From positions 16,749 to 80,748 of the forward strand of contig CAZYAB010000001.1 of assembly GCA_964645705.1 (NCBI GenBank): 64,000 bases of DNA, read 5' to 3'. This DNA comes from an uncultured Methanosarcinales archaeon. GTDB lineage: Archaea; Nanobdellota; Nanobdellia; Woesearchaeales; CAXGTL01. Shown here in pieces: positions 6,935-63,541 of the stretch (positions are counted from its first letter, which is position 1; the number at the start of each line of letters is the position of its first letter). The notes beneath the pieces were generated by a model. The model searched no databases. It saw only the letters and a list, made by a program, of their open reading frames with translations, and was not told the DNA's origin. The position numbers and the translations under genes were made by a program.

Positions 6935-6949
6935 GTGGAGGGGAAATAT

Positions 6950-9103
6950 ATGGCAAAAAAAAAACAAGGATTAGTACGAAGAATAGCTAGTGCAACAGCT
7001 CATAAAGTTGTTTCTTTAGCAAATGAATATGATAGTAGTGCACCAGCTCAAGAAGAAAAACCAAAGGAACCAGAAGAAGAATATGTTTTAAAACCTGAAG
7101 ATGTTTATTTCAAGATTGGCGATTCAGTTTATGGAACAACAGCTGCAACAAGAGATGTAAAGATAGGTTATGGAATGTGTATCAAAGGATTAGTTTATAC
7201 TGACGAGAGTATTGAACATATTAATGAATTAGAAGGTTCTCAAATTCTTAATGATCTAAAATCAAGTGTTATGTATAATTTTGTAGAAAATATTCTAAGA
7301 CATAAATTTTCAGGAGATAAATTAGATCCAACAGGAAGAGTACGTGCATTTCAATTACTAACTTATGGTACAAAAGTGGAAACTCCTTGTAAAGACTCAA
7401 AATTAGTTGATTTTTACAAAAATCAATTAAAGAAGAAAAAAGATACAGGACTTGTAATCATAGACGAAAGAACTGTTTATATGGATTTACTTAGAAAAAC
7501 TTACAGAGACGGATATGTAGAATTAGCTAGAGATAGATTAACAGAGATGTTAAAGGATACAGATTTATTAGATAATGAAGCATCTGTTGACGAAGCAGTT
7601 GCAATGGTCTATTCAGGACTTGATGACTCTCAAAAACAAAAATTAGCTAAAGGATTTAAAGAATCAGGAAAAGGACAAATAACTGAAATTACGCACGCTA
7701 TTGCAAGATTATTTTACATAGATCCTACAAAAGAATCAAAACCAACAAAAGAAATTGAAAGTAGAATAAAATCTAATCTTGTTAATGAAATGATAAGATC
7801 TTCAGTACAACCAACATTTAATGTAAAAGACAGATTACTGGCTCTTGCAAGTCTTTTCAAACAAGAAGAAGATAAAGCAGAGATTGATGCAAAAACATTG
7901 AAGAGATTTACTTCTGAAAAAGAATATCATATATTCGGTAATGAGGAACACTTTGATGCACCAACTTTAGAAGAAATGAGTAATGAAATTAATACTCACG
8001 TAAATCTAAAGATGATGCCTGTTGCAAGACAGATTGCATTACAGCAACAAGAACTCAAACAAAAATTGTTGTCTTATAGTGGAAAATCTGATGAACAATT
8101 GGGTGATCAAGAAAGAAAAGAAAAGCAAAGACTTGATGACGAAGCAAAGAAACTTAATGAACAACTTGAATTTGAAAAGGAAGCATATATTAAAACTCAT
8201 TTGGCTAGACTACAAACATTCATCAATGCAGAAGAAACAGTTGAAGTTAAAGATAAAGTAGAAAAAGGAAGAGCAGAATCAGCAATGGGTTTTAAAGATA
8301 CAAAAAGTAAGCTTAGAAGATACTCAGGACGTGCTGGTTTAGTAACTACATTGATATTATTGGGAGCAAGTGCTTGGTATTCTAAAACAGGCTTAGAATT
8401 AAATGAAACAAAATATATGAAAGGTCTTGGTCGTGCATCACCAACAGAAATCGCGTGGGCAATGTTTAGTGATCCTGAATTACCAGATACAATCAACCAA
8501 TACCTGTTACTTCAAGTTTCAGGCGCAACAGAAGCAATTGCAAGTAAAGTAGATGGTGTTACAACCACAATTGGAGACAAGGTTGACGGCGCAACAATAA
8601 CAATCGGTGAAAAGGTTGAAGGTGTAACAACTACAATTGGCGAGAAAGTAGAGGGTGTTACAACAACAATCGGTGAAAAGGTTGAAGGCGTTACAACCAC
8701 AATTGGAGACAAGGTTGATGGAGTTACAACAACAATCGGTGAAAAAGTTGATGGTGTCACAACTACAATTGGAAGTAAAGTTGATACAGCTGTTTCAGGC
8801 GTAGCAACATCAATTGGTGAAAAAGTAGATGGCGCTGTTTCAGGCGTAGCAACAACAATTGGAGATAAAGTTGATGAATATGCTGGAAGTGTTGAATCAA
8901 TCCAAGATAACATAGAAGCTGAAATACAAGCACAAATGAAAACAGTTGTTGACAGAATATCTGCTCTTGAATCAAAAGCACAATTAACACCTGCTGAAAA
9001 GAGTGAACTAGAAATGCTAAAACAGAATGTTGGTGGTCTTGTAAACACTGTAAACTATCTTAGAGACAAATTAAGACAAGTGAGAAAAGCCAACAGCAGA
9101 TAA
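6950..9103 (+). CDS. membrane-anchored coiled-coil protein with 11-residue tandem repeats (hypothetical)
   Basis: ATG at 6950 is preceded by GGAGGGG. A ~460-aa N-terminal soluble part is followed by one TM (GLVTTLILLGASAWY), then ~10 tandem 11-aa repeats (TIGEKVEGVTT) and a C-terminal coiled coil. No signal peptide. Confidence 0.6.
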   Translation: MAKKKQGLVRRIASATAHKVVSLANEYDSSAPAQEEKPKEPEEEYVLKPEDVYFKIGDSVYGTTAATRDVKIGYGMCIKGLVYTDESIEHINELEGSQILNDLKSSVMYNFVENILRHKFSGDKLDPTGRVRAFQLLTYGTKVETPCKDSKLVDFYKNQLKKKKDTGLVIIDERTVYMDLLRKTYRDGYVELARDRLTEMLKDTDLLDNEASVDEAVAMVYSGLDDSQKQKLAKGFKESGKGQITEITHAIARLFYIDPTKESKPTKEIESRIKSNLVNEMIRSSVQPTFNVKDRLLALASLFKQEEDKAEIDAKTLKRFTSEKEYHIFGNEEHFDAPTLEEMSNEINTHVNLKMMPVARQIALQQQELKQKLLSYSGKSDEQLGDQERKEKQRLDDEAKKLNEQLEFEKEAYIKTHLARLQTFINAEETVEVKDKVEKGRAESAMGFKDTKSKLRRYSGRAGLVTTLILLGASAWYSKTGLELNETKYMKGLGRASPTEIAWAMFSDPELPDTINQYLLLQVSGATEAIASKVDGVTTTIGDKVDGATITIGEKVEGVTTTIGEKVEGVTTTIGEKVEGVTTTIGDKVDGVTTTIGEKVDGVTTTIGSKVDTAVSGVATSIGEKVDGAVSGVATTIGDKVDEYAGSVESIQDNIEAEIQAQMKTVVDRISALESKAQLTPAEKSELEMLKQNVGGLVNTVNYLRDKLRQVRKANSR
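8553..8880 (+). repeat. 33-nt tandem repeat array (about 10 units) inside CDS
   Basis: Near-identical 33-nt units (acaac[at]acaattgg[ac]ga[ag]aa[ag]gt[at]ga[ag]gg[tc]gt…) encode the TIG[ED]KV[ED]GVTT repeats. Confidence 0.85.
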
Positions 9104-9172: not shown

Positions 9173-11515
9173 ATGGAACAACAACAAGAACCAAAATTAG
9201 GTAAATATTTGGTTAGTTTTTTAGGTGATTACAAAATAGGGAAAAGTCTTCTTATGGTTTTACTTCTTTCAAAACTAGCACTCAAATCAAAACATCAAAT
9301 AGCAAACATATGTGATGAACATTCTTATTTGGAAAGCTATTATTATAAAGGAAGAAAAAAAATAAAAGAGGGCGCTTTTAAGTTCATTGGATGCGAGATA
9401 GATACTTCTCCTAGTTTTGCAAGATTATTTGGTAATTTCTATGAAAGGGGTAAAACATCAGAAGTAAATATTGAAGGAGCAAAGATTTACATAAATAAAG
9501 GATTAGAACAAGTATTAGACGAAATTGAAAACGGCGTTGTAATTACTAGTTTCAGTGGCGGAACTGCTTATGCAAATTATTTGAAAAAACCAGTCAATAC
9601 TATCAACTATGTTTTTTTAGATAGGGACGGTAAATCAGATGATGCACTTTTAGAATTATTAAATTTTCATTATGATGGTTTTTTGAATAAGATCTCAGAC
9701 ATCAATTCTTACGAACAAGAAGATAAAAAGAGTTTTATAAAGACAACACAAAGACTGATTCATCAAAAGTATGATGACACTTCTAATATAGGTTTTACCC
9801 AAACATTCAATGAAAGATCAAAAACATTGATTCAAGCATTTTTTATTTCAGAGATAAAGAATCATATGAAAATAAATAATAATCATGAACCTTTATCACA
9901 CATTATCAGAGATTATTTAGTAAATATTGATTCTAAAAATCTGAGTGAGAGTTCTGTTTTAACTCTGGACCAACTTCTTTTAAGAAAAGGATATGTGTCT
10001 GATGAATTCTTACATAGAACTTTGTCATCAATAAAAGAAATAAGAAAAAAAATAAAATGTAATGATTCTGTTGTTATAAAAGCGTTATTTGAAATGTCAA
10101 TGTCTCATTCATTATTAGAACAACATTTCGAAAACATATACTCTCATGATTTTAATAGAGTTATAGCAAGAAATACAGTTAGGTGTAATGAAAAATTTCA
10201 AAGATATAATGTGGATAATAGAACTAGAGTAAGTAGTAATGCACACAATCTTGCATTTTTCCTATTAGAAAAATTTCTTCCAAACAGAATTTCAGATATA
10301 TTTGAAATCATGAAACAAAAACATTATCATGATCATATAAAAAAGAATAATTATAATTTTTTAGTAGATGTATCAGAAGCAAATCAGGATTTAAGATATA
10401 TTTTTTCAAACACAATTCCTTTTTTATTAATAAGAGGATATTCAAAGAAAAACATAAGAGATATTGCTATGAAACTAAACATTGGTTTTGCAGATAATGA
10501 AAATAATGGATTTATAGATAAAGTAGGCATCATTAAAAAAAGATTATTTGAGGACCATGATTTTAGAAATCAATTGATTAGAGATTATGAATCACTTAGC
10601 GAAATTATAATGTCACAAATAAAACCATTTGGTGAAAATCAGTCTGCATTAGACCCTAAGTATAAGAAAATAGCCATTGATCATAATTCTTATAGCCTGA
10701 TCCAAACATTAGAATCGCCTGAACTAGAAGGTGAATTAGTATCAAACATCATGCACTTAAGATCTGTATTTGATCCCCACATATTCTTTTTTGGCGGAAA
10801 ATTAGATTTGTCTAAAGGTTCAAAAATCATGGCAAGAGATCTTCTGATTAGTCAATATTCAGAGATAGTGGATAAATTTGATTGGAAACCTAATTACATA
10901 GGAGAATTTGAATTCAATGAGGAATTAGAACTATTAACAGATGGACAAATTCCTATTTTTGAATGGTCGCCTGAGGAAAAAGACAATTTAGTTAAGAAAA
11001 TAGAAAATTACATGAAAACAATAAAGCAACAAGGTCATGAAAACCAAAAACAAGCAAATTATTCAGAAGAACAAAAGAAAACAAAATTAGTTTCTTTTCT
11101 AAAATCTTTTACAAAAAGAAACAAAGAAAAATTAAAACAACTTTCTCCTAGACAAAGGGAAGAAATTCGTATGAGGGCAATTAATCATTATAAAAATAAA
11201 TTAAAATCTATGTGTGATGAATATAAAAAGATTTTTATAGAACTAAATGACCAATTTGAAGAGTTATCTTTTATTCCTAATGTTGAGAATATTTTAGAAA
11301 TATTGTGTGGCACAATATATGAAATACACAATAGAAAAAATAAAATACAAAACCCTGAACAATTTGATTTTGAAACTTTTATTAAAGATCATTTAATAAA
11401 ATACAAAGAATTAGAAATGAGAATAAAACAACACTCTTATTCAAGATCACAAGAACAAAGAACAAAAGGAGTGTTAGGATATTTTAGAAAGACTGCTTCA
11501 CAACAAGCTCCATAA
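9173..11515 (+). CDS. large cytoplasmic hypothetical protein with N-terminal P-loop (Walker A) motif
   Basis: 780 aa, no TM. GDYKIGKS (G-x4-GKS) lies at residues ~18-25, and VFLDRDG could be a Walker B / G3 DxxG. The rest is helical with no known domain. Confidence 0.5.
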   Translation: MEQQQEPKLGKYLVSFLGDYKIGKSLLMVLLLSKLALKSKHQIANICDEHSYLESYYYKGRKKIKEGAFKFIGCEIDTSPSFARLFGNFYERGKTSEVNIEGAKIYINKGLEQVLDEIENGVVITSFSGGTAYANYLKKPVNTINYVFLDRDGKSDDALLELLNFHYDGFLNKISDINSYEQEDKKSFIKTTQRLIHQKYDDTSNIGFTQTFNERSKTLIQAFFISEIKNHMKINNNHEPLSHIIRDYLVNIDSKNLSESSVLTLDQLLLRKGYVSDEFLHRTLSSIKEIRKKIKCNDSVVIKALFEMSMSHSLLEQHFENIYSHDFNRVIARNTVRCNEKFQRYNVDNRTRVSSNAHNLAFFLLEKFLPNRISDIFEIMKQKHYHDHIKKNNYNFLVDVSEANQDLRYIFSNTIPFLLIRGYSKKNIRDIAMKLNIGFADNENNGFIDKVGIIKKRLFEDHDFRNQLIRDYESLSEIIMSQIKPFGENQSALDPKYKKIAIDHNSYSLIQTLESPELEGELVSNIMHLRSVFDPHIFFFGGKLDLSKGSKIMARDLLISQYSEIVDKFDWKPNYIGEFEFNEELELLTDGQIPIFEWSPEEKDNLVKKIENYMKTIKQQGHENQKQANYSEEQKKTKLVSFLKSFTKRNKEKLKQLSPRQREEIRMRAINHYKNKLKSMCDEYKKIFIELNDQFEELSFIPNVENILEILCGTIYEIHNRKNKIQNPEQFDFETFIKDHLIKYKELEMRIKQHSYSRSQEQRTKGVLGYFRKTASQQAP

Positions 11516-11529
11516 TAAGGTGAAAACAA

Positions 11530-12453
11530 ATGCATAAAACAAAAAACACAGATCAAAACAGCAATCAAAATAATAATCAAAACAGCAATCAAAATAATAA
11601 CCAAAATAATAACCAAAACCCTAATCAAAACAATTATTTTCATAAAATGTTGTTGTTAGCAGCAGGTATTGTTGCCGCAGGTTACATGTTTTTATGTCCT
11701 GTAAAATCATCAGCAGAAACAACTGAATCAAAAAAAACAATTGATGATGTTGTCAGAAGATTCACTGTAAAACAATCCCAAAAACAACAACCAAAAAAAC
11801 CAAATTATATTATTTTACGTGAACAAAGATATATTGAACTTTGCAATCTTATTTACCAAAGTTGGGATAAGATTTCAGAAAGAATAAATAGATTAGATAG
11901 AGAAAATAAAACAGATAAAAGAAATGATTCCGCAGCAGTTGATGAGTTGTCACAAGCAGAAGAGTATATTTCATTTGTTTCTAAAGAATCTGAACCAAAT
12001 TTTGATGATTTTAATCAAAGGGAATTAGTAAGAAGATTATTATTATTAGAAAAGGTTTACAATGCAAGACCCAAGGAAAAGAATTATTTTAGAGACAATT
12101 TTAGATTAGGTTATGGTGTTAAATGGAGAGAGGACCAAAATAGATGCATGATTACTTGGGGAAATGATGAATACAAATTCAAGTGGTCTGACAGAGACGG
12201 CAGTTATTTTATGAAGTGGGACACAGATGGCAACCCTATTTTTAGATTTTATAAAAAACAAAAAATTCATAGAAAACCAAAAACAGGATCATCATCTTCA
12301 TCTCAACAATCACAACAACAAGATCCTCAAAATCAAACACAAACACCTGAACAAGAGCCACAGCCAGAACAAGATCAAGAATTTCCTTCAGAAAATGGAT
12401 CAGGAGAAGGAAGTTCTGATGATTACACTGATTATTCGAATTTTGGTTTTTAA
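11530..12453 (+). CDS. secreted or membrane-anchored hypothetical protein with N/Q-rich N-terminus and acidic C-terminal motif
   Basis: AGGTGA lies 6 nt upstream of ATG. The N-terminus has (NQN) repeats, then a hydrophobic segment MLLLAAGIVAAGYMFLCPV. It ends …DQEFPSENGSGEGSSDDYTDYSNFGF. Confidence 0.5.
   Translation: MHKTKNTDQNSNQNNNQNSNQNNNQNNNQNPNQNNYFHKMLLLAAGIVAAGYMFLCPVKSSAETTESKKTIDDVVRRFTVKQSQKQQPKKPNYIILREQRYIELCNLIYQSWDKISERINRLDRENKTDKRNDSAAVDELSQAEEYISFVSKESEPNFDDFNQRELVRRLLLLEKVYNARPKEKNYFRDNFRLGYGVKWREDQNRCMITWGNDEYKFKWSDRDGSYFMKWDTDGNPIFRFYKKQKIHRKPKTGSSSSSQQSQQQDPQNQTQTPEQEPQPEQDQEFPSENGSGEGSSDDYTDYSNFGF
11563..11640 (+). repeat. short tandem nucleotide repeat (aatcaaaa[ct]a[gat]caat…) encoding NQN low-complexity
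   Basis: Repeats of caaaacagcaatcaaaataataa/ccaaaataataac are directly visible. Confidence 0.6.
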
Positions 12454-12671
12454 TCATTGAACCGAAAATATCACAAAAACAACAAAAAATTTAATGACCA
12501 CTATATAATACTAACATTGCGAAAGATTTATATATAATAATAGATTTACACAGTAAAAGTTTACCATAGTATAATAAAAGAGGTTCTAAAAGAGGTTTCA
12601 CAAATTTAATGTTATTAGGGGTGTTTAGATTTAGGTGATAGTGTAGATAGTATCATGTGGAGGGATATAAT

Positions 12672-13778
12672 ATGGAAAATAAAAAAACTTTTAGAACAAT
12701 AGGTGCTCTGGTTTTATCAGGAACAATGCTTTTTAATTCTGCTTTTGGATATGTGTCAAGAGCATTAGGTGTAGAACCATCTGGTGAAACTACAAGAACA
12801 GAACAAACAACTGAATATAGATTAAAAGGAAATGATAATATTGAATCATTTGTTAAAAATACTATAATGATTGAAGAATATAAGGAAACAAAGGATTTAA
12901 GTGGAATTTCTGTTGATTCATACATGGGCGCAATTCTTAATCAAGGTTTACTACCTTATCTTGAAGAAGGAGATGTTTCAGAAATGTATCTTGATGAGAA
13001 CTTAGATGCAACTGGTAATGGCAGATTAATTTTTGTTTCAGAAAGTGGAGCTCCAATATCTCCTATGCCAGTTAGTCCTGTATATTTCCCTGCTATTAGG
13101 CAAGGAATAATAGAATATGCAAAAAAAGCATTAGCACAAAATCAGAAACTAGATCCAGATGAAGCTATTAAAGATCCTAAATTTGTTGCAAAAGTGGAAC
13201 AAGATCTATTAGATTCAGTAGAAGAAACTAGAACAAATGAATCTGTGAAAACAAGACAAGCATTACTTAAAGAATACAATGAAGCTCTTGCTAGAGCAGA
13301 ACCAGTTATGTATAAAGGCGGAACAGCAGAAGAACCTGGAAAAGGTTCAACAAAACACAGAATCCTTAAATTAGATGGGGAAGGAAAACTGTATACAGAT
13401 AAAGCAAAAACACAATTAAATACAGATTATAGACAAGATGTAATTTCATTAGAAGATCTAGCAGATGCTGAAAAATTGATTGCAACAAAACCCAATCCAA
13501 ATAACATGAGTGATGAAGTACTTCAAGAAAACATCATTTTATTGAATGGTTCTCATGATGCAAGTGATACTGTTAATAAAATTTCTGCAGGTGCAATTGG
13601 AGGAGTACTAGGCGGTCTTTACTTCTTAACAAGAGACGGCGGATCAACACCAGGAACACCTGTAGAACAAGTTGATGAACCTCAAGGAGAAGATGATCAA
13701 GAATTCCCTGACAATACAGGAGAAGGAATTTCAGATGACGAAGACAGAACAACACTTGAAGAAGAAATTGGTTTTTAA
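12672..13778 (+). CDS. secreted hypothetical protein sharing a C-terminal motif with the upstream gene
   Basis: ATG 12672 is preceded by GGAGGG. Signal peptide MENKKTFRTIGALVLSGTMLFNSAFG. It ends …DDQEFPDNTGEGISDDEDRTTLEEEIGF. Confidence 0.55.
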   Translation: MENKKTFRTIGALVLSGTMLFNSAFGYVSRALGVEPSGETTRTEQTTEYRLKGNDNIESFVKNTIMIEEYKETKDLSGISVDSYMGAILNQGLLPYLEEGDVSEMYLDENLDATGNGRLIFVSESGAPISPMPVSPVYFPAIRQGIIEYAKKALAQNQKLDPDEAIKDPKFVAKVEQDLLDSVEETRTNESVKTRQALLKEYNEALARAEPVMYKGGTAEEPGKGSTKHRILKLDGEGKLYTDKAKTQLNTDYRQDVISLEDLADAEKLIATKPNPNNMSDEVLQENIILLNGSHDASDTVNKISAGAIGGVLGGLYFLTRDGGSTPGTPVEQVDEPQGEDDQEFPDNTGEGISDDEDRTTLEEEIGF

Positions 13779-13899
13779 TTTTTTTATTTTTTCATATTAA
13801 TAATACTATTATTATAATATAAGAAAAGAAAAAAAGAGGGAAAAAGAGGAAAAGCAAATCAAAATAAAAAATAAAACAAAATTCAGAGGTTATAAAAAA

Positions 13900-18050: not shown

Positions 18051-19553
18051 ATGGTTATGAAAAAATTTTTAGGATTAACACTATTAGTTGTACTGATGTT
18101 TAGTGCTTTTGTATCAGCATCTGCATTAGACGAACTAAGATGGGAACAAGAGTATATGCATGAGAGAGGAAGAAAGGTTTTAGTTGTTGACAGAATCGAA
18201 GTAGAAGGCACAGATGTTCTAGAATTTCATCCTGAAAACAGACCTGTTATCGACCTTAATAGAGGAGAAGAATTAGAAGTTGAAGTAACTCTAATGAATA
18301 AGATGACAGATGTTGAAGATGAAGAAGTTTGGGACCCTATCGAAGGATGGGAAACTCAATATGTAGACATCGATGTTGAAGACGCAACAATGTATGTTTC
18401 TTTTTGGTATGAAGATGCAGAAGAAGAAGGTACAATGGATAGAGTAGAAGTTGATCTTGATGCTGGAGCATCAGATTCATATACTGCTAAACTAAAGCTA
18501 CCAAAAGATATGCCACAAGAAGAAGCACAACTATACATAGAAGTAAGAGACAAGTCAGGACAAGTATGGTTAATGTCACACGTATTTGATCCAATGTATG
18601 AAGAACCTGATGATGATTGGTATGAATATGGTGAATGGGTTTATCTGAATGACTTCTTTGATGGTGGAATTCCTCTAACAATAAGAGCTCAAAGTGAACA
18701 CTTAATAGACATTAAGGATATCATGCTACACCCAGAATCTAGAGTTACAGCTGGTGATTTATTAACAGCTCAAGTAAGGCTAGAAAATATTGGTGAAGTG
18801 GATATTGAAGAAGATGATGTTAAGGTTACAGCAAGAGTGCTAGGATTAGACGATGCAATGGATTCAACATATCTATTAAAAGAATTAGAATATGAAGATG
18901 AAGCATCAACAGAACCACTTAGCTTTTACATACCGCTTTGTGCAAAACCAGGAGAATATACTTTAGAAGTTACTGTTGAATATGATGATGGCGACGAAAA
19001 GCAAACTGCAGAAAGAAAAATAACTGTTGTTGGGTCTGGTTCAGACATGTGTGCTGAAAAAGCTCAATCAGGAGAAACATCAGTTAACATAATTAGTGGA
19101 ATGCAAGTTTTAAGTGAAAGTCAAAAAATGGCAACATTCCCAGTTGTAATAACAAACAATGCAGACACATCAAAAGCATTTGTTGTTAGTGCTGACGCAC
19201 TAGGCGATTGGGCATCTGAAGTAAAAGTTCAAGAAACTTCAGTAGTTATTGACGCAGGAAAACAAAAAACAGTTTTAGTACTTGCAACTGCTAAAGATGA
19301 CGCACAAGCTGGTAAACAATTAGTTTCAATAAAAGTTAAAGACTCAGAAGGAAACACAGTTCAAGAAGAAGCAGCTGAACTAAGCATTGCTGGTTCAACA
19401 GGCGGATTTGGAAAGATGTCCTTTAGAAGAGTTTTAGAAGTTGGACTGATTGTATTAGTAATATTGTTAGTGCTTTTAGGCTTAATCATAGGTTTTAACA
19501 AATTAAAAGAAGATGAAGAAGACCTAGAAGAAGAAGACAAAAGCTATTACTAA
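18051..19553 (+). CDS. secreted acidic protein with C-terminal TM anchor (hypothetical)
   Basis: TAGGAGGG SD. Signal peptide MVMKKFLGLTLLVVLMFSAFVSASA. A C-terminal hydrophobic helix VGLIVLVILLVLLGLIIGF is followed by an acidic tail. Confidence 0.55.
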   Translation: MVMKKFLGLTLLVVLMFSAFVSASALDELRWEQEYMHERGRKVLVVDRIEVEGTDVLEFHPENRPVIDLNRGEELEVEVTLMNKMTDVEDEEVWDPIEGWETQYVDIDVEDATMYVSFWYEDAEEEGTMDRVEVDLDAGASDSYTAKLKLPKDMPQEEAQLYIEVRDKSGQVWLMSHVFDPMYEEPDDDWYEYGEWVYLNDFFDGGIPLTIRAQSEHLIDIKDIMLHPESRVTAGDLLTAQVRLENIGEVDIEEDDVKVTARVLGLDDAMDSTYLLKELEYEDEASTEPLSFYIPLCAKPGEYTLEVTVEYDDGDEKQTAERKITVVGSGSDMCAEKAQSGETSVNIISGMQVLSESQKMATFPVVITNNADTSKAFVVSADALGDWASEVKVQETSVVIDAGKQKTVLVLATAKDDAQAGKQLVSIKVKDSEGNTVQEEAAELSIAGSTGGFGKMSFRRVLEVGLIVLVILLVLLGLIIGFNKLKEDEEDLEEEDKSYY

Positions 19554-24501: not shown

Positions 24502-27500
24502 ATGCAAGAACAATCAAATTCAAATGAAAAGATTCAAACGAATCAAATTAAAACAGAACAGACAAAACAGACAGAACAGGTAATACAGCAAACTAATAAA
24601 GAGATTAATAAAGAAACTGATGAACAAAAAATAGATAAGAAAAGAAAAAAAATAATTGAAACATTGAAGAACTTCTTTACACAAGAAGTAGAAGAGGAAA
24701 AACAGAAAACAGAAGATAAAACAAAAACAAGTAAGAAAATAGAAGAGAATAAAATAATAGGCGAAAAAAAAGAAGAGCAGAAAGAAAAATCAGAAGAACA
24801 AATCGAAATAGATATGCAAAGAAAAAGACAAGAATTTATTAATTTTATTAAAAAAAAACCAATTAATTTGCTTTACATTTTATTCATCTTATTAATACCT
24901 ATAGGTTATCTTATGTATAAATCAGGAACAAGCAGTTTCTTTCTTTTAGACATTTTTATACCATTCCCAATTAATAAATATGGGTTTGTTTCATTTTTTT
25001 TAATACTGCCCATAGTTTCATGCACATTATTATATTATAAAAAACAAGCATATATTGCTCTATTGTATATTATTAATTCAGGTTTTGCAATTAGACTACA
25101 AAATTTACCATTATTAAAAGATATTACAACTGGAAAATATGTGCCTCTTGCCTTAGACCCGCATGTTTTTTTAAGATATGCGAAGTATCTTTTAGAGCAT
25201 GGAAAATTTTATGCCATAGATTCTTTGAGGTATCAACCATTTGGAGCTAATATGGAGGGTTATAATTCAACAACGTTTTTGTCAAGATTTATTGTTTTCT
25301 TGCACAAAATATTTAGAATTTTCAACTCAAATCAAACTATTGAATTTACAGATGTAATCTATCCTCCTGTTTGTTTTGCTATTAGTCTAATATTTTTCTT
25401 TTTAATTGTTAAAAATTTATTTAATAAAAAAATAGCAATCATTTCAACTTTTATCCTATGTGTTGTTCCTACTTATTTATATAGAACAATGGCTGGTTTT
25501 TCAGATAAAGAATCATTAGGTCTTATGTTCATGTTTATTACTTTTTATTTTTTTATTTTGAGTTGGAAATCAGAAAAGATTAGAGAGGTAATTTTATTTG
25601 GGTTAATCTCAGGAATAGCGACAGGTTTAATGGGTTTAACTTGGGGTGGTGTAACTTTTGTTTTATTAATATTTGGAATTTTTACATTTACTGAAATACT
25701 TTTAAAGAAATTCAGAAAAACAGACTATTTTTTCTACATTTCTTGGATTATGCCAATGACTTATATTATGGCTTTCACTACAAACCAATTTGGCGGAATA
25801 ATTCCTTTATTAAAATCATTTACCTCTGGGATAGCTTATCTTGCTTTTTTAGTTGCTACGTTTGATTTTTTATTTTTTAAATTAAAGATTTTTAAGTTTA
25901 GGGACAATCTTAGTAAAAAATTACCATTAGGAATTACTAGTACTCTTCTCTCATTATTTTTTGCTTTTATTGGTATATCAATATTCTTTGGTCCATCTTT
26001 TATTCTTAAAAAGATCTCTAGTGTTTTTTCAGATATGATAAATCCTTTTGGAAAAACAAGATGGGCATTAACAGTGGCAGAATCTCACCAACCTTATTTT
26101 ACTAATTGGATTAGTGATTTTCAATGGTCATTTATTATTTTCTTTTTTATAGGTTCAATAATTTTATTTTATTATGCATTAAGGCCTTTATCCAAGAAAG
26201 AGTCATTTTCAACTAATTTAGGAATTTATTCTGCAATTTTTGCATTATTTTTAATATTTTTTTCAATGAGTAGATACAGCAGAGGTAATGCTGTTTGGAA
26301 TGGAGAGACAATCTTATCAAAAACAATTTATATTGGATCTTTTATTTTTTTCCTTTTGGTAATGTTTTTATCATACTTATATCTATTTTATTTTGATAAA
26401 AATACTTTTAGAAAAATTGAATCAATAGAAAAAAAATATATTTTTATCTTGATTTGGTTTATTATTATGCTTGTTGCAGCAAGAAGTGCTTTAAGATTGA
26501 TTTTAATGCTTGCACCAATAACAAGTATACTTACAAGTTATTTTATTGTTTTTTCAATCAAAAAGACACAGAAATTTAGTTTAGTAATGAAAGATAAAGT
26601 ATATAAATATTCTTTGATAGTTTTGATGGTTTTTATCTTAATCATCGCATTCTGGCCTTTTGCATCATTAGTTAATGCAACTCCTTTAATAAATAAAGTA
26701 CCTTTTATTAATAGAAATGGTTTTATCATTAACTATGCTGCTTTAAGTATGAGCCAAGCAAAATATACTGGACCTAGTTATGATCAACAATGGCAATTAG
26801 CAGGTAAATGGATTCGTGAAAATACTTCAGAAGATGCTGTATTTGGTCATTGGTGGGATTATGGTTATTGGGTTCAAACAGGTGGTGAAAGAGCAACAGT
26901 TGGTGATGGTGGTAATTGGATAGGTTATTGGAATCATTTAATGGGCAGACATGCTTTGATGGGTGAAAATCAAACAGAAGCTTTAGAATTTTTAAATATG
27001 CATAATGTAACTCATTTTCTAATTATTGCAGATGAGATTGGAAAAATAGGTGCTTATTCTTCTATTGGTTCTGATGAGAATTATGATAGATATACTTTTA
27101 TTCCAACATTTTCATTAAACAATCAATTAACAAAAGAAACAAGAGAAGGCATGATCCTTATTTATGAAGGCGTAACCCCTGTTGATGAGGATTTTGAATT
27201 TAATGGTGTTAAATATTATGCAAGACAAGCAGCTGTTAAAGATGTTTATATTCCAATTAAGAAAATAACAATAAATATAGGAGAAAATAAAACAAGACAA
27301 GACATGCAAATCATGCAACCATATACTTTGCTTTTCCAACAAAATCAACAACCACTTGAAGTTCCTCTTAAATGTTTATATTACCAAGATCAATTCATTG
27401 AATTTGATAAACCGGGGTTAAACAATTGTTTTATGGTTATTCCAACCATAAATAATCAAGGCTTTGATCCTAACGGAGCAGGTTTATATCTTGGTAATGA

Positions 27501-27783
27501 TGCTATAAATTCTGTGTGGGTTAATTTATTCTTATTTGAACAAAAAAATACAAATTATAAAACAAACAATTTTAAATTGGCCTTAAGTCAACAACATCCT
27601 ATTTTAGATGATGTAGGTAAACAAATAGGTTTTAACATAAACAACGTTGCTTTATACAATGGAAGATTATTTGGTCCTTTGAAAGTATGGGAAGTTAATT
27701 ATCCTGAGAATTTAACATTGTATCCAGAATATCTTCATAAGAGTTATCAAGAGGCAAATATGAGCCATGTTACTGTGATTTGA
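24502..27783 (+). CDS. aglB: archaeal oligosaccharyltransferase AglB (STT3 family) with ~130-aa K/E/Q-rich N-terminal extension
   Basis: WWDYGYW catalytic-site motif (GHWWDYGYWVQTGGERATVGDGGNW). About 13 TM helices precede a large C-terminal soluble domain. Total length 1093 aa. Confidence 0.85.
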   Translation: MQEQSNSNEKIQTNQIKTEQTKQTEQVIQQTNKEINKETDEQKIDKKRKKIIETLKNFFTQEVEEEKQKTEDKTKTSKKIEENKIIGEKKEEQKEKSEEQIEIDMQRKRQEFINFIKKKPINLLYILFILLIPIGYLMYKSGTSSFFLLDIFIPFPINKYGFVSFFLILPIVSCTLLYYKKQAYIALLYIINSGFAIRLQNLPLLKDITTGKYVPLALDPHVFLRYAKYLLEHGKFYAIDSLRYQPFGANMEGYNSTTFLSRFIVFLHKIFRIFNSNQTIEFTDVIYPPVCFAISLIFFFLIVKNLFNKKIAIISTFILCVVPTYLYRTMAGFSDKESLGLMFMFITFYFFILSWKSEKIREVILFGLISGIATGLMGLTWGGVTFVLLIFGIFTFTEILLKKFRKTDYFFYISWIMPMTYIMAFTTNQFGGIIPLLKSFTSGIAYLAFLVATFDFLFFKLKIFKFRDNLSKKLPLGITSTLLSLFFAFIGISIFFGPSFILKKISSVFSDMINPFGKTRWALTVAESHQPYFTNWISDFQWSFIIFFFIGSIILFYYALRPLSKKESFSTNLGIYSAIFALFLIFFSMSRYSRGNAVWNGETILSKTIYIGSFIFFLLVMFLSYLYLFYFDKNTFRKIESIEKKYIFILIWFIIMLVAARSALRLILMLAPITSILTSYFIVFSIKKTQKFSLVMKDKVYKYSLIVLMVFILIIAFWPFASLVNATPLINKVPFINRNGFIINYAALSMSQAKYTGPSYDQQWQLAGKWIRENTSEDAVFGHWWDYGYWVQTGGERATVGDGGNWIGYWNHLMGRHALMGENQTEALEFLNMHNVTHFLIIADEIGKIGAYSSIGSDENYDRYTFIPTFSLNNQLTKETREGMILIYEGVTPVDEDFEFNGVKYYARQAAVKDVYIPIKKITINIGENKTRQDMQIMQPYTLLFQQNQQPLEVPLKCLYYQDQFIEFDKPGLNNCFMVIPTINNQGFDPNGAGLYLGNDAINSVWVNLFLFEQKNTNYKTNNFKLALSQQHPILDDVGKQIGFNINNVALYNGRLFGPLKVWEVNYPENLTLYPEYLHKSYQEANMSHVTVI

Positions 27784-30171: not shown

Positions 30172-32484
30172 ATGGAAAACATAAAAATAAAAGGAACAAA
30201 AAAAAGAAAAAAAAGAAAAAAAGGAAACAGAACATTACAGTTTATTTTTTTATTATTACTTTTAAGTTTAATCTTCTTTTATAAAATCCCTTTTAATTAT
30301 GATGAAATTTTATATAGTGACCATTCTGATCTTATTGGACAATATTCATACTGGAAATATTTTATTAAATCTTCATTTGAACAATATAAGGAAATTCCTT
30401 TGTGGAATCCTTACAGTTTTTCAGGGCAACCTTTTTTAGGTAATTTACATTATCAGGTTTTTTATCCTCCATTCACATTATTTTTATTAATTAATCCTGA
30501 TTTATTATTTGGATATATGTTTATTTTTCATTGTTTTTTAGCAGGCACCTTTATGTTTTTTCTATTGAGAGAATTCAAACTGAATAATTTTAGTTCATTT
30601 ATAGGTGCTATAACTTATATGATTTCATTTAGATTTATCATGCATGTTTATAGTGGTCATTTAAGTATTCTTCCAACTGTAGTTTGTTTGCCTTTGGCAT
30701 TTTTCTTTACAGAAAAGGCAATTAAAAACAAGAGAATTTATTGGGCATCATTATCCGGATTAACATTAGGAATACAATTTTTAGGTGCACACACACAATA
30801 TTTTTTTTATACTTGTTTTTTTATTTCATGTTATATAATTTTTTCATCACTAACAAGACTTAAAATTAAAAAAATAATTCTATTACTATTAACAACATTT
30901 ATTATAACCACCCTCATAGCTTCTATACAATTAATACCATCATATGAATTTTCAAGATATAGTACAAGGAGCAGTGGTCTTGATACAGAATCAAGTATAA
31001 AATTTTCTCTACCTCCGTATGAGATAATATCTTTTATAATACCCAAATTCTTTGGTGATCCAAGAAATAATACTTATTTTGGTAGGTGGAATATAACCGA
31101 AACTGCGGCATATATTGGCGTCCTTCCTTTTATATTTGCATTGGTTACTATTTTTATTATCAATAGAAAAAATCATTATCAATATAAGGATTATAGAATT
31201 TATAAATATTTCTTCACGTTTTCTACAATTTTTTCATTATTATTTGCATTTGGTAAGTATACTCCATTATTTTGGTTTTTCTATAAATTTATTCCAGGAT
31301 TTAATTTCTTTAGAGGGCCATCTAAGATGTTGTTTTTTTATGTCTTTTTTATGATAATTCTTGCATCAATAGGTTTTGATTGGTTCTTGAAACATAGAAA
31401 TAGTAATCAAATTAAAAGAATAAAAAAGGTTTTAGCAACTATCCTTATTATATCATTATTATGCATTACTGTTTCATTTATATTAAGAGATAGAATAATA
31501 AATTTGGGTGAGGAGCTTGTTTCAAATCTTTATCTAAATAATCCTCAAAGTAACAGAATAGTTGGGGAAAATCTAGATTTTTTTATTAGTAAAGTTCCTC
31601 AAATTTATTACCATATTCTTGTTCAGTTAATTCTTTTTACAATATTACTAATTTTATCGTTTTTAGTTTTTTATAATGCTCTAAAAAATAAGAAGATCTT
31701 TTTTTTGCTTATTTTATTTGTAATTTTATTCGATTTAACATTATTTAGTGCAACATTTATACAAACAAAACCAATAATAGATGTTTTTAAATCAAATGGA
31801 CATTTAAATACAATAAAAATTGATATGGTGGACAATGGTCAAATATTCAGGATATTGGATTTATCTGGTTTATTACCACAGCACATCACCATTAGACATA
31901 ATATACAAAAGACACTTGGCTATGACCCGATGATATTAAATGATTATTATAATTATATTCATGAATTGGGAAATGGTCCTAATAGAAATTTAGAAGTGAT
32001 AAATATAAATAAAGTGAGCAATCATACAATGTTGAATTGGCTTAATGTTAAATATATTATAGATAAAGATAGTAAATTAGTTATGAACAAAGGTTATTTG
32101 CCAAGAGCATTTTTTTCAGAGGATGGATCTAAAGCTGAAATAGAATTTTATTCACCAAATAAAATAATAGTCAATACAAGTGGTAGAATAGGTGAATTAA
32201 TATTGTGCGAAAACTATTTCCCTGGTTGGAAAGCTTATATTAATAATGAATCAGAAAAGAATAATAAAATAAATGTATATAAAGTAAATAGAATTTTTAG
32301 AGCAGTAAACGTAAACAAACCAACTAATAAAGTAATATTTGTTTATGATCCTTTAAGTTATAAAATTGGGAAAATTCTTTCTTTAATAGGAATTATTATT
32401 GTTCTCTTCATCTTTTTTTTAGATAGAAAAAAAATTAAAGAAGCAAATTCAAATGAAATTAAAAAGAAAAATCAAGAAAAGTAG
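30172..32484 (+). CDS. YfhO-like polytopic membrane protein (putative GT-C glycosyltransferase)
   Basis: About 12 N-terminal TM helices, a ~200-aa extracytoplasmic C-domain, a final TM and a K-rich tail. This topology is typical of the YfhO family. Confidence 0.45.
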   Translation: MENIKIKGTKKRKKRKKGNRTLQFIFLLLLLSLIFFYKIPFNYDEILYSDHSDLIGQYSYWKYFIKSSFEQYKEIPLWNPYSFSGQPFLGNLHYQVFYPPFTLFLLINPDLLFGYMFIFHCFLAGTFMFFLLREFKLNNFSSFIGAITYMISFRFIMHVYSGHLSILPTVVCLPLAFFFTEKAIKNKRIYWASLSGLTLGIQFLGAHTQYFFYTCFFISCYIIFSSLTRLKIKKIILLLLTTFIITTLIASIQLIPSYEFSRYSTRSSGLDTESSIKFSLPPYEIISFIIPKFFGDPRNNTYFGRWNITETAAYIGVLPFIFALVTIFIINRKNHYQYKDYRIYKYFFTFSTIFSLLFAFGKYTPLFWFFYKFIPGFNFFRGPSKMLFFYVFFMIILASIGFDWFLKHRNSNQIKRIKKVLATILIISLLCITVSFILRDRIINLGEELVSNLYLNNPQSNRIVGENLDFFISKVPQIYYHILVQLILFTILLILSFLVFYNALKNKKIFFLLILFVILFDLTLFSATFIQTKPIIDVFKSNGHLNTIKIDMVDNGQIFRILDLSGLLPQHITIRHNIQKTLGYDPMILNDYYNYIHELGNGPNRNLEVININKVSNHTMLNWLNVKYIIDKDSKLVMNKGYLPRAFFSEDGSKAEIEFYSPNKIIVNTSGRIGELILCENYFPGWKAYINNESEKNNKINVYKVNRIFRAVNVNKPTNKVIFVYDPLSYKIGKILSLIGIIIVLFIFFLDRKKIKEANSNEIKKKNQEK

Positions 32485-34237
32485 AATTTTAATAGTGTTA
32501 ATTTTATTATCTTTTTTGTTAGGTATATTATTAATCCCCAATTCCCCTACAGAAGGGGATTCTATTGGTTATGCTAATGAACTTAGGTCATTTGTTGAAG
32601 GAAATTATCTTCTTTCAAGTTTCTCATATCATAAACCTCTTTTTATGTTTTTTAATTATATCTCATACAAATTTCTAAACGCTTTTAATAATGTTTCATT
32701 TTTATTTGCCATTGCGTTTACGTCTGTCGTTTTTGGTAGTCTTTCTATTCTTTTGGTGTTTAATTTTGTTAAACATTTAACAAAAAGAGATGATGTTGCA
32801 TTAGTTTCTGTATTTTTATTCTCATTTTCACCTTTTGTTTTGTGGTTTAAGTCTTTTCCACTTAGTGAAATAACTTCACTTTTTTTTGTTCTGTTAAGTT
32901 TTGTTTTGCTCTTCTTTTATGAAGATAATTCCAAAATGATTTATTTAGTTTTATCTTTATTTGTTTGTGGACTTAGCCTTCTTGTAAGATTTTCAAATAT
33001 CTTTTTTATTCCTATGTATTCATTATATTTCTTTTATATTCTCTATATAAAAAAGAAATTAAAACTCTTTCCTTTAATTATTTGTTTTTTATTGCCTATT
33101 GGAATTTACGTGTTTGTAATTAGTACATTTATACGGCCAGATTTTCAAATTATTAATTTTTTTTCAGTCTCTTCCCAGCACATCTCTGGTTTAAAAAATA
33201 TGTTTAATTTTGAAATTTGGATAGCACATTTATTCCAAATTATTAATGGTTTTACATTAACATCTTTTGTATTGGTTTTTGGGGGATTTTTTATTTTATT
33301 AAAAAATGCATTTTACAAAAACACACAAAAAGGAATGCTAACAAAGGAGGATTCTTTAAAGTTAATTTTCTTCTCTTTATTTTGGTGTTTTCCTTCTTTA
33401 TTTTATTATGCTGCTATTATGAATCCTCTCTTAAGATATGAAATTAACCTATTACCAATTTTAATTTTGCTAGCTTCATTATCTATTTTTCATTTTAGAC
33501 AGTTTAATCGTATTTATCTTTATATTCTCTTTTCTTTGTCTATATTATTTGATTTATTAATTAATTACTTACCAATTTCTGAGTATTATTATGGTGGCAG
33601 CACATTACATTCTATATTCTCTTTTTTTGTTTATTTTGATTTAGTTTATGTCATTTTCTCCCTTATTATTATTTTTGTAGTGTATACATATGTTAAAAAG
33701 AAAGTAAAGAAAATAAAAAAGTTATCTTTTATAGTAATTATAATTATTATAATGATTCTTCATGCTTTGCCTGTGTCAATGTTACTAATTAAACAAACAC
33801 ATTATATGCATTCAATAGCTTCATGGTATGGAGAAAATGTGCCATCAGATTCAACCATAATTGCTGGTAAAGAAGCTTCTTTTGACTATTTTTTTATGCC
33901 ATCATCTAATATTATTGAATACAGGGGACTTTTTTATAAATATAGCAGTTCATCTGAAACAGATTTAGAGAAATCTATTGTAATTCAAAATATCTCTTCA
34001 AGTTTAGATTCTAATAAATCAGTTTACATTTCAACAGATGTCTATCTTAAAGATTTAGTTGAGTACCTTAAAAGTAAAAATAATTTTAATTTAAATTTAA
34101 AAAAGATCATTCCTTCTGAGAAAATCAGAAGCCAATACGATCCAGCCGGAGTTTTTATGAATTATGCTAGCTTAATTAAATCAGAAGATATATACATCTA
34201 TGAAATAAATAAAAATGTTAATATAGAAAATATTTGA
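32453..34237 (+). CDS. GT-C fold glycosyltransferase (ArnT/PMT-like) polytopic membrane protein
   Basis: An acidic motif in the first loop (EGDSIGYAN) and HKPLFMF (cf. the (H/K)PPL box of GT39/GT83), with more than 10 TM helices. Overlaps the upstream gene by 32 nt, suggesting an operon. Confidence 0.5.
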   Translation: MKLKRKIKKSRILIVLILLSFLLGILLIPNSPTEGDSIGYANELRSFVEGNYLLSSFSYHKPLFMFFNYISYKFLNAFNNVSFLFAIAFTSVVFGSLSILLVFNFVKHLTKRDDVALVSVFLFSFSPFVLWFKSFPLSEITSLFFVLLSFVLLFFYEDNSKMIYLVLSLFVCGLSLLVRFSNIFFIPMYSLYFFYILYIKKKLKLFPLIICFLLPIGIYVFVISTFIRPDFQIINFFSVSSQHISGLKNMFNFEIWIAHLFQIINGFTLTSFVLVFGGFFILLKNAFYKNTQKGMLTKEDSLKLIFFSLFWCFPSLFYYAAIMNPLLRYEINLLPILILLASLSIFHFRQFNRIYLYILFSLSILFDLLINYLPISEYYYGGSTLHSIFSFFVYFDLVYVIFSLIIIFVVYTYVKKKVKKIKKLSFIVIIIIIMILHALPVSMLLIKQTHYMHSIASWYGENVPSDSTIIAGKEASFDYFFMPSSNIIEYRGLFYKYSSSSETDLEKSIVIQNISSSLDSNKSVYISTDVYLKDLVEYLKSKNNFNLNLKKIIPSEKIRSQYDPAGVFMNYASLIKSEDIYIYEINKNVNIENI

Positions 34238-61822: not shown

Positions 61823-63541
61823 ATGAAATTTATTAATAAGAAAAAAGATTTAATAGTATTGTTTTTATTCTTATTTGTAATTGTAACTAGATTTATTCCA
61901 ATAAATAATCTATATAGTGAGGATGAAATGAACATACCATTGATTCTTGAAAGTAATCCTGATTATTTTGTAAATACTAAGTTACACGCACATCCACCGT
62001 TAGGAGAAATAATCTTTTATTTTCATTCATACATCTTTGGTACATCTTTGGTGTTTATAAGACTTTTACCAATTTTATTTTCTATTTTTAATATATTTTT
62101 TCTATATTACATAACGAAGAAGTTTTATGGTGAAAAAGTTGCATTCTTTTCATTATTATTGTCCTCAATTTCATTTCATTGGTTAGTTACATCTGCCATA
62201 GTTTCTATAGATCAATTCGCAGTAACAATTTTCTTACTTTTTTTATATCTAATATTAAATAAAGAAAACATAAAAGAGAGATTTTCTATTTATATGGGAA
62301 TATTGTTGGGTATATCTATTTTATTAAAATACCAGTTTATTATTTTATACTTGATCTTATTCATATATTTGTTAATAACTTCATATAGATTAAAATATAC
62401 ACTTATTTCCTTTTTTAAATCTTGTATTGTTTCTTTAATACTTTTTTCTTTTTATCCTGTTTTTTCATATTTCACTGATTTTAATTTATTTTTAGATACA
62501 TTAAGATTCATAATGGATTATGCAAGCACTGTTAATGGTGTTAATTTGCCATTCGGGACAATATTTACCATCTTAGCATTGTATAGTACACCATTACTGA
62601 TAGGATTAGCTTTTTTAAGATTAATAAGTTTTATGAAACTAAAAAAACAAAAACAGAATTTTAGACAAAAAGAGGTTGTAGGACAAGATATTATTCACAT
62701 TATAATTATAATAATAAATCTCTTATTTTTCTTATTTGTAGTAAAACGTGGGGACTATAGCAGGTATTTAATGATAATATTGCCTTCTTTAACTATTCTT
62801 TCATCTCAATATCTTTCTAAAATAAAATTTAATAAAGCTTTATTATTTTTAACTTCTTTCTTTGCTCTCATTGTCTTTTCATTTAGTCATGTTTTTTCTT
62901 ATATTAAACTCTCCGAGGATATTTTTGTTTTACAAAATGTTAATTTTTATATGCAATCTATAAAAAATCTAAATTTCAATTTCTTTTTTCCATTTCATAT
63001 AGATCATGGCCACTGGGTTGGAGCTAATTTTCTATTAATCTTTTTAATTTATTTGTTTTCTTTGGTAATCTTCATTTCTTTATTTTTAATTAAAAATAAA
63101 AAATTACAATTGTTAGTTATTGTTTTATTTATTGGTTTTGGTTTTGGTTATAATTCTTATCTTAGTTCAGAGCATTTGTTTCATCTATCTCAACCTGACC
63201 CAAACCCTGTTATAAATGAAATGATTGATTTTTTTAATGATAATAATTTGGATAGGCCTATTTATGTAACAGACAAGGCTTTCTTATATAAACTGAATAC
63301 TTTTGATATTCCTCATGGGAAAAATGAGAAATTAATTATAAGGGATGAGTCATTTAGAATAGATGATATTGATTTTCTTAAAAAAAAGATTTCTCAAAAT
63401 GGTGGCACAATAATTTTCTTAAACTTTGGACCACACGTTGAAAAGGATAAAATAATTAGCCTGGAAAATTGTAATTTGATCAAACGTTTCAGTTCAAAAG
63501 AGATAGAAATGGGCTATATTTTAACTTGTGAATCAGATTAA
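61823..63541 (+). CDS. GT-C glycosyltransferase (PMT/ArnT-like, GT39/GT83-type)
   Basis: First loop has YSEDEMN and HAHPPLGE (DE and HPPL boxes). About 12 TM helices, then a ~150-aa C-terminal soluble domain. Confidence 0.55.
   Translation: MKFINKKKDLIVLFLFLFVIVTRFIPINNLYSEDEMNIPLILESNPDYFVNTKLHAHPPLGEIIFYFHSYIFGTSLVFIRLLPILFSIFNIFFLYYITKKFYGEKVAFFSLLLSSISFHWLVTSAIVSIDQFAVTIFLLFLYLILNKENIKERFSIYMGILLGISILLKYQFIILYLILFIYLLITSYRLKYTLISFFKSCIVSLILFSFYPVFSYFTDFNLFLDTLRFIMDYASTVNGVNLPFGTIFTILALYSTPLLIGLAFLRLISFMKLKKQKQNFRQKEVVGQDIIHIIIIIINLLFFLFVVKRGDYSRYLMIILPSLTILSSQYLSKIKFNKALLFLTSFFALIVFSFSHVFSYIKLSEDIFVLQNVNFYMQSIKNLNFNFFFPFHIDHGHWVGANFLLIFLIYLFSLVIFISLFLIKNKKLQLLVIVLFIGFGFGYNSYLSSEHLFHLSQPDPNPVINEMIDFFNDNNLDRPIYVTDKAFLYKLNTFDIPHGKNEKLIIRDESFRIDDIDFLKKKISQNGGTIIFLNFGPHVEKDKIISLENCNLIKRFSSKEIEMGYILTCESD

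Follow-up and report, generated by a model that had tools for sequence, protein, structure and literature searches.

An acidic C-terminal peptide ending in Gly-Phe is shared by two adjacent orphan proteins of a DPANN archaeon and may serve in docking

In a 64,000-nucleotide (nt) stretch of contig CAZYAB010000001.1 (assembly GCA_964645705.1, positions 16,749 to 80,748 of the forward strand) from an uncultured archaeon of the Woesearchaeales, hereafter the window, two adjacent genes encode proteins with a common acidic C-terminal peptide of about 27 residues that has Gly-Phe at its end. The two proteins, A (11530-12453, + strand) and B (12672-13778, + strand), fit the consensus EPQxExDQEFP-x3-5-GEG-x-SDD-x7-10-[FI]-G-F-COOH in their tails. 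The similarity of these tails is beyond what their composition explains, and neither protein shows the defining features of the PGF-CTERM type of sorting signal. Our preferred reading, held tentatively and with slightly less than even confidence, is that the shared tail is a tethered docking peptide through which both proteins bind one partner, probably in the cytoplasm.

A preliminary description of this DNA had reported two neighboring proteins with a shared C-terminal motif, and both + strand open reading frames (ORFs) are indeed present and carry it. When A was compared with B by BLASTP, EPQPEQDQEFPSENGSGEGSSDD (A residues 276-298) paired with EPQGEDDQEFP--DNTGEGISDD (B residues 336-356, 368-amino acid (aa) numbering), with 15 of 23 positions identical and a pairwise E=6e-5. 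Nothing outside the motif could be aligned, all remaining BLASTP high-scoring segment pairs having E>0.5, which bears out the earlier remark that the remainder of the two proteins is dissimilar. The Smith-Waterman score of the two tails was 70, compared to 29.4 +/- 5.7 in composition-preserving shuffles, of which 1 in 20,000 reached 70 (P ~5e-5). The chance that a tail would end in GF, given its composition, is ~0.004 for A and ~0.008 for B. Both ORFs have TAA immediately 3' of the codons for GF, and the extreme C-termini, FGF-COOH in A and IGF-COOH in B, are each hydrophobic-Gly-Phe.

The layout of the motif is kept along with its residues. The distance from DQEFP to the C-terminus is 26 and 27 residues in the two proteins, as indels of -2 and +3 offset each other. 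The spacer from SDD to GF is 7 and 10 residues long, rather than the 8-14 first proposed, and its intervening residues differ between A and B. The regular expression offered in the preliminary description, DQEFP.{2,4}G.GEG.SDD, misses B, which has DNT-GEG at that point and needs a 2-residue indel. A degenerate DNA pattern for D-Q-[DE]-F-P...G-[DE]-G-x-x-[DE]-[DE], which fixes GAT for the first Asp, matched the window twice (in A and in B) versus 0 matches expected from shuffles, and neither DQEFP nor GEG.SDD occurred outside A and B in any of the six reading frames of the window. The last 45 residues of the two proteins contain 11-16 acidic and 0-1 basic residues, and P, Q, S, E, D, and G are abundant in the tails.

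The age of the similarity was judged from codon use. Over the 17 identical residues of the motif, 11 of 17 codons are identical, compared to 10.4 expected from the codon usage of the window; because a recent copy would give about 17 of 17, identity at the level set by codon bias indicates that the patch is not a recent DNA copy. At the nucleotide level, A and B share a 33-nt patch (76% identical) and a 22-nt patch (91% identical) with an indel between them, and no extended or flanking DNA repeats were found around this region. The preliminary description had reasoned that a motif restricted to these two proteins would mean a recent partial duplication. That scenario is contradicted by synonymous sites that have diverged to the limit set by codon bias and by the lack of an extended repeat. 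Since the flanks cannot be aligned and 15 of 23 identities are nevertheless kept in a tail predicted to be coil, constraint on the peptide is probable, and the motif appears to be selectively maintained.

Whether the two tails could meet the same partner depends on which side of the membrane they face. The window proteome is split by charge, with cytoplasmic proteins having an isoelectric point (pI) of ~9-10 and lysine plus arginine (K+R) of ~17-20%, and extracellular domains having a pI of ~4-5 and K+R of ~4-11%; in this genome the compartment of a protein can apparently be told from its composition alone. For 20 cytoplasmic proteins K+R was 17.3 +/- 2.8% (pI ~9.0), and for 4 extracellular domains it was 7.9 +/- 2.7% (pI ~4.8). 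The body of A (K+R 20.1%, pI 9.05) falls in the cytoplasmic class, ~4.5 standard deviations (SD) from the extracellular mean, and the body of B (K+R 11.2%, pI 4.58) falls in the extracellular class. Protein A has a single hydrophobic anchor helix, MLLLAAGIVAAGYMFLCPV (residues 40-58; 11647..11703, + strand), which reaches 2.14 in a 19-residue Kyte-Doolittle window and overlaps a helix at residues 31-54 in a low-confidence AF2 model, and more Lys and Arg lie behind this helix than ahead of it. Given the composition of its body and this distribution of Lys and Arg, A is probably not secreted and probably has both body and tail in the cytoplasm.

Protein B begins with a signal-peptide-like N-terminus, MENKKTFRTIGALVLSGTMLFNSAFGYVSRALG (12672..12770, + strand), in which a hydrophobic stretch comes after a basic n-region and the AF2 model places a helix at 5-31. 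Directly before its tail is a Gly-zipper (GxxxGxxxG) segment, ISAGAIGGVLGGLYFLT (residues 304-320; 13581..13631, + strand), that is a marginal candidate for a transmembrane (TM) helix, its Kyte-Doolittle value of 1.25 lying under the usual TM threshold and the AF2 model giving a short helix at 306-317. Both proteins had originally been described as secreted, which suits B, with its signal-peptide-like start and extracellular-type body, and is doubtful for A, whose body has a cytoplasmic composition. The cytoplasm would be the sole compartment that both tails could share and was therefore adopted as the working model, in which the tail of B would be cytoplasmic only if the Gly-zipper spans the membrane.

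If the shared tail is a docking peptide, a flexible tail would present an acidic, Pro-kinked aromatic core (DQEFP) together with a free hydrophobic C-terminal carboxylate (Phi-G-F, Phi being a hydrophobic residue) to a groove of the partner. A would use its N-terminal helix as an anchor and keep its body in the cytoplasm. In B, arranged as a type I protein, the body would lie outside the cell and the tail in the cytoplasm, with the weak Gly-zipper TM helix between them. A docking setting is suggested because the tails are predicted to be coil and have the composition given above, and linear docking motifs are usually found in coil-type tails of such composition. The prime candidate for the partner would be a basic, P-loop-like orphan protein of 780 aa, encoded immediately upstream of A with 14 nt between its stop codon and the A ATG; a 722-aa coiled-coil protein may take part as well. 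The preliminary description had proposed a sorting, anchoring or docking signal on the grounds that a short C-terminal module was found on dissimilar proteins; that observation stands and docking is plausible, and it is the sorting tag that is not borne out, given that the surface proteins nearby are without the motif and that no sortase is encoded nearby, as detailed below.

Several points weigh against the docking peptide. The candidate TM segment of B is marginal, and manual sums by the Hessa and Wimley-White scales come out unfavorable; should the segment fail to cross the membrane, the tails would be on opposite sides of it and would be unlikely to have a partner in common. The N-terminus of A can also be read as a signal peptide with a long n-region and an SSA|E cleavage site, which would place A outside the cell. 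The structure models of A and B have a pLDDT of ~40, and the nucleoside triphosphatase (NTPase) call on the 780-aa candidate partner stands at the level of motifs. The codon test covers 17 codons and is compatible with a copy of intermediate age (synonymous divergence, dS, of ~0.5-1). There are two carriers only, and A, B and the 780-aa protein have no database homologues, while it is conservation across species that ordinarily proves a motif functional.

The arrangement is reminiscent of known acidic docking tips. The C-terminal tip of the bacterial single-stranded DNA-binding protein (SSB; DDDIPF) and the tail of the ribosomal stalk proteins P1/P2 combine a disordered linker, for which A and B have a tail predicted to be coil, with an acidic run (SDD) and a short hydrophobic or aromatic end with G-F or P-F. 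The stalk tail (...SDDDMGFGLFD) recruits translational GTPases, and in systems of the SSB or stalk type several different proteins or copies dock onto one partner. However, there is no sequence homology to either, A and B have no OB fold or stalk protein domain, the carriers here are membrane proteins, and the partner is only a candidate. By analogy, then, the tail of A and B may be likened to the acidic docking tips of SSB and the ribosomal stalk and to PDZ ligands, without belonging to any of those families. No docking module described in Pfam, of the dockerin/cohesin type or any other, matched the tails of A or B.

Two explanations would leave the peptide without a function. Chance resemblance between two low-complexity acidic tails is scarcely credible: both tails are compositionally biased, and the pairwise E of 6e-5 would fail a correction for all protein pairs of the whole genome, but shuffles that preserve composition almost never reach the observed score, and the resemblance joins adjacent genes in which the motif lies at an equal distance from the end and GF follows in both. 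A neutral relic has to be taken more seriously, even if we consider it unlikely. The tail would then be a functionless remnant: the genes would have arisen by tandem duplication long ago, or a ~70-nt 3' end would have been duplicated or converted between neighbors. This would agree with A and B being adjacent and co-directional, with the small codon sample and its tolerance of an intermediate age, and with a motif that is confined to these two proteins within ~84 kb and absent from the collections scanned, which is the very outcome that the preliminary description had set against a functional tag. An in-frame 18-nt patch (11711-11728 in A and 12799-12816 in B, + strand; 16/18 identical, encoding AETTES and EQTTEY) lies right behind the N-terminal hydrophobic segments of the two proteins; this ETTE/QTTE patch may be chance, or it could be a faint trace of collinear paralogy. 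Against a relic, the synonymous sites look saturated, yet nearly two thirds of the aligned residues remain identical in a tail predicted to be coil, where divergence is ordinarily fastest, while all similarity has been lost over the remainder of the proteins. Compensating indels keep the spacing, and the terminal GF is retained despite a changed sequence from SDD to GF; no extended DNA repeat accompanies them.

Other explanations grant the peptide a function and place it elsewhere. As an extracellular sorting, anchoring or docking tag it would sit on exported A and B and be aimed at a processing enzyme, the S-layer, cations or the host surface. We regard this as improbable, although the N-terminus and body of B are those expected of an exported protein, SSA|E after the hydrophobic segment of A is a plausible signal peptidase site, and the genes sit in a cell-envelope and glycosylation island beside PKD and S-layer-like proteins. 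Sorting signals of the PGF-CTERM type (processed by archaeosortase A, ArtA) and of the PEF-, PEP- and GlyGly-CTERM types are likewise short, conserved, G-F-containing C-terminal elements on envelope-associated archaeal proteins. In the account in PMC5744192, which cites Abdul Halim 2015, PGF-CTERM-type signals are tripartite, consisting of a signature motif, a TM helix and a basic cluster, and ArtA cleavage is accompanied by lipid attachment. The tail of A and B differs in being strongly acidic, and neither a hydrophobic segment nor a basic cluster follows the motif in A or B, GF being the free C-terminus. The NCBIfam models, which include the curated TIGRFAM/NCBIfam CTERM sorting models, gave 0 families for A and B at E<=1, with the limit that HMMER speed filters can drop weak matches to short models. 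The earlier statement that the motif is unlike PGF-CTERM and PEF-CTERM is therefore upheld on both counts.

The surroundings also speak against an extracellular tag. No archaeosortase, exosortase, rhombosortase or dedicated peptidase was present among the Pfam annotations of the window with 10 kb added on each side (~84 kb), so the co-occurring processing enzymes that the preliminary description had looked to were not found there. A hand-aligned hidden Markov model (HMM) of the tail, run against all six-frame ORFs of the same ~84 kb, scored A at 67 bits and B at 72 bits, with the next best at 2.2 bits. A and B were thus the only carriers, which, as far as this region can tell, goes against the family of tagged proteins that the preliminary description had expected. 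The motif is absent from three clear surface proteins just downstream (a PKD protein of 1275 aa, an S-layer-like protein of 500 aa and a protein of 983 aa). In addition, the K+R content of the A body, at 4.5 SD above the extracellular mean, fits the cytoplasmic class, and the tail of B would be cytoplasmic if the Gly-zipper is a TM helix. A literature search for C-terminal signals of DPANN archaea found nothing specific.

A last possibility is that a PDZ-type protease or regulator reads the Phi-G-F-COOH end and thereby controls turnover or signaling of A and B. The classical PDZ ligands are Phi-x-Phi-COOH (class II) and YxF-COOH (DegS-activating), and FGF-COOH and IGF-COOH fit the former, a pattern match only and to a very permissive pattern. 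No PDZ-domain protein appeared in the Pfam results of the ~84 kb, and the conserved ~20 residues upstream, DQEFP...GEG.SDD, lie outside the definitions of PDZ ligands. We consider this reading a long shot; it is really a special case of docking with another partner.

Searches beyond the locus defined how widely the motif and its carriers are found. The degenerate DNA pattern gave 10 matches in 185,579 GTDB species genomes, all of them chance (in high-GC bacteria, internal or out of frame), 10 matches in JGI metagenome contigs, again all chance, and 0 in IMG/VR, three collections that are without the source lineage. Neither the GTDB nor the JGI collection includes the source contig, of which JGI assemblies do exist, and these negatives are weaker than they seem. 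Searches of databases with the full-length proteins are uninformative on other carriers of the tail, since a match to the tail alone (~30 bits) is below significance there. The A and B sequences are identical in about eight independent assemblies. Drawn from about eight samples, these assemblies all belong to one clonal population (99.99-100% identical) and offer no orthologues and no polymorphism for a ratio of nonsynonymous to synonymous change (dN/dS). Exact look-ups of A, B, NAC and the genes at the window ends led back to this clonal population alone.

With the motif known from two carriers in one clonal population, no new sorting system is defined and its general significance is small. 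If it is a docking peptide, it would physically link two uncharacterized membrane proteins and, probably, the adjacent orphan NTPase-like protein, and it would provide a handle on a block of four homologue-less genes in a DPANN archaeon whose cell surface is all but unexplored. A further implication would be that one genome suffices for reading short linear motifs, provided that neighboring genes share them. A bolder version, which we think has very little chance of being right, is that DQEFP...GEG.SDD...Phi-G-F-COOH is the recognition tag of an undescribed, lineage-specific, membrane-associated machine in a Pacearchaeota-like DPANN archaeon. The 780-aa P-loop protein, with the 722-aa protein, would then hold A, an N-anchored adaptor, and B, a type I receptor-like surface protein, by their cytoplasmic tails, coupling the surface to a cytoplasmic NTPase, and more tagged clients would exist elsewhere in the genome.

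Protein A (307 aa; 11530..12453, + strand) is a lineage-specific orphan. A ribosome-binding site, GGTGA (11517-11523), precedes its ATG, which lies 14 nt from the stop codon of the 780-aa gene upstream. The 39 residues ahead of the anchor helix are N/Q-rich, and the N/Q-rich extension (residues 8-35; 11551..11634, + strand) is encoded by a 12-nt tandem repeat. About six copies of this repeat, AATCAAAAYAAY (encoding N-Q-N-N), occupy 11539-11632 on the + strand and have the look of a microsatellite-type expansion within coding DNA. In the AF2 model the body is helical and then beta-rich, and the tail (residues 243-307; 12256..12450, + strand) is predicted to be coil and is rich in Q, S, P, E and D, its 65 residues including 13 Q, 11 S and 11 D+E. 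Within the tail, the shared core aligned by BLASTP lies at 12355..12423 and the terminal N-F-G-F-COOH at 12439..12450, both on the + strand.

No homologue of A besides its own fragments was found among 1.84 billion representatives; of its search matches, P0003 is an assembly-end artefact and P0004 is a fragment of A. A had no family match in Pfam, NCBIfam or PADLOC. A borderline match to the PHROG family phrog_197, 'Zot-like toxin' (E=0.009), aligned residues 40-281 of A with positions 232-428 of the 486-position profile. The aligned part is the TM and C-terminal part of the profile protein, the N-terminus of which is a P-loop ATPase, and a P-loop-like gene is located directly upstream of A. 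A Zot-like identity was rejected, the match being probably compositional, as it covers the TM segment and a Q/P-rich linker. A reading of the motif as a glycosylation site was likewise rejected: A holds an N-G-S sequon, and the N-T-G of B is no sequon.

Protein B (12672..13778, + strand) is also a lineage-specific orphan and has 368 aa when translated from the ATG at 12672, or 373 aa from a GTG at 12657. The true start is almost certainly the ATG, which is preceded by GGAGG and is the choice of gene callers, rather than the listed 12657. The AF2 model gives B an alpha/beta body and, after the Gly-zipper, a tail of ~48 residues predicted to be coil. The shared core aligned by BLASTP is EPQGEDDQEFPDNTGEGISDD (residues 336-356; 13677..13739), and the extreme C-terminus is E-I-G-F-COOH (13764..13775), both on the + strand. 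A search of 5.8 billion clusters retrieved the B cluster alone, and no family matched B in Pfam, NCBIfam or PADLOC. Pfam searches of A and B at E<=10 returned noise only (CSG2 1.8, DUF7691 0.14), none of it within the tails, and neither tail matched PDB sequences. The AF2 models of both proteins have a pLDDT of 39-40 and no alignment depth, and only their secondary-structure calls were used here.

The 218-nt spacer between A and B contains an element, GCGAAAGATTTATATATAA (12519..12537, + strand), that by eye resembles the archaeal BRE/TATA consensus, and an oligo-T run resembling an archaeal terminator follows directly after the B stop codon (13779..13792, + strand). Bounded by these two elements, B appears to form a separate transcription unit, with A apparently coupled to the 780-aa gene.

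The genes for the 722-aa protein, the 780-aa protein, A and B make up a co-directional block of orphans. The 780-aa protein (9173..11515, + strand), proposed here as the candidate partner, has no signal peptide or TM segment and a pI of 8.7. It has a Walker-A-like motif, GDYKIGKS (residues 18-25; 9224-9247), after a hydrophobic strand, a YVFLDRD motif (9608-9628) whose YVFLD is Walker-B-like, and a very basic patch (residues 635-674; 11075-11194) with a charge of +11 per 40 residues, all encoded on the + strand. It retrieved no homologues in the 5.8 billion clusters and nothing in NCBIfam or PDB at E<=1, and its Pfam matches at E<=10 were sub-threshold noise only (KIP1 0.066, NUMOD1 0.22). Judged on its motifs alone, it may be a novel P-loop NTPase, and it would be the obvious candidate to bind the acidic tails.

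At the head of the block is a coiled-coil orphan of 717/722 aa (6950..9103, or 6935-9103 for the longer form, + strand), which has no TM segment and no signal peptide. Its matches are limited to helical repeats like those of apolipoproteins, tape-measure proteins and the ZorA tail, and to coiled-coil noise in PADLOC and PHROGs; it might conceivably be a further component. The 722-aa gene contains diverged internal repeats of ~96 nt that are 87% identical and ~131 nt apart. In some assemblies the gene is split (554+55 aa; 375+337 aa), though the locus differs by at most 1 single-nucleotide polymorphism in 10.9 kb, which suggests that a nonsense mutation is polymorphic or that the repeats caused the assemblies to differ.

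The window is archaeal, with a GC content of 24-33%, and encodes NAC, AglB/STT3 and an HVO_2718-like helix-turn-helix protein; no tRNA and no Rfam matches were found in it. Across the 84 kb as a whole, housekeeping genes accompany a glycosylation and envelope island. The island is unusually rich in paralogues of STT3/AglB- and PMT_2-like glycosyltransferases (24502-27783, 32453-34237, 51859-54252 and 61823-63541 in the window; 16160-17893 in L034), one of which is a 797-aa fusion of PMT_2 with a C-terminal cyclophilin-type peptidyl-prolyl isomerase. It also holds many GT2/GT4 enzymes, methyltransferases and radical-SAM enzymes.

Two genes downstream, the 500-aa protein (18051-19553, + strand) matched NF033506, PACE-CTERM-PROT putative S-layer protein, with E=6e-30 and 104 bits, the cut-off being 110; no literature on PACE-CTERM was found. 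The family name may point to a Pacearchaeota-like DPANN organism as the source. A and B differ from this family in having no match to it at E<=1, and by the tail HMM the 500-aa protein is without DQEFP...GEG.SDD...GF. The NF033506-like protein has a strong TM helix and then an acidic tail ending in aromatics (...EDEEDLEEEDKSYY; ...NKLKEDEEDLEEEDKSYY), and it is the second case in the cluster of a TM helix, an acidic tail and a terminal aromatic residue.

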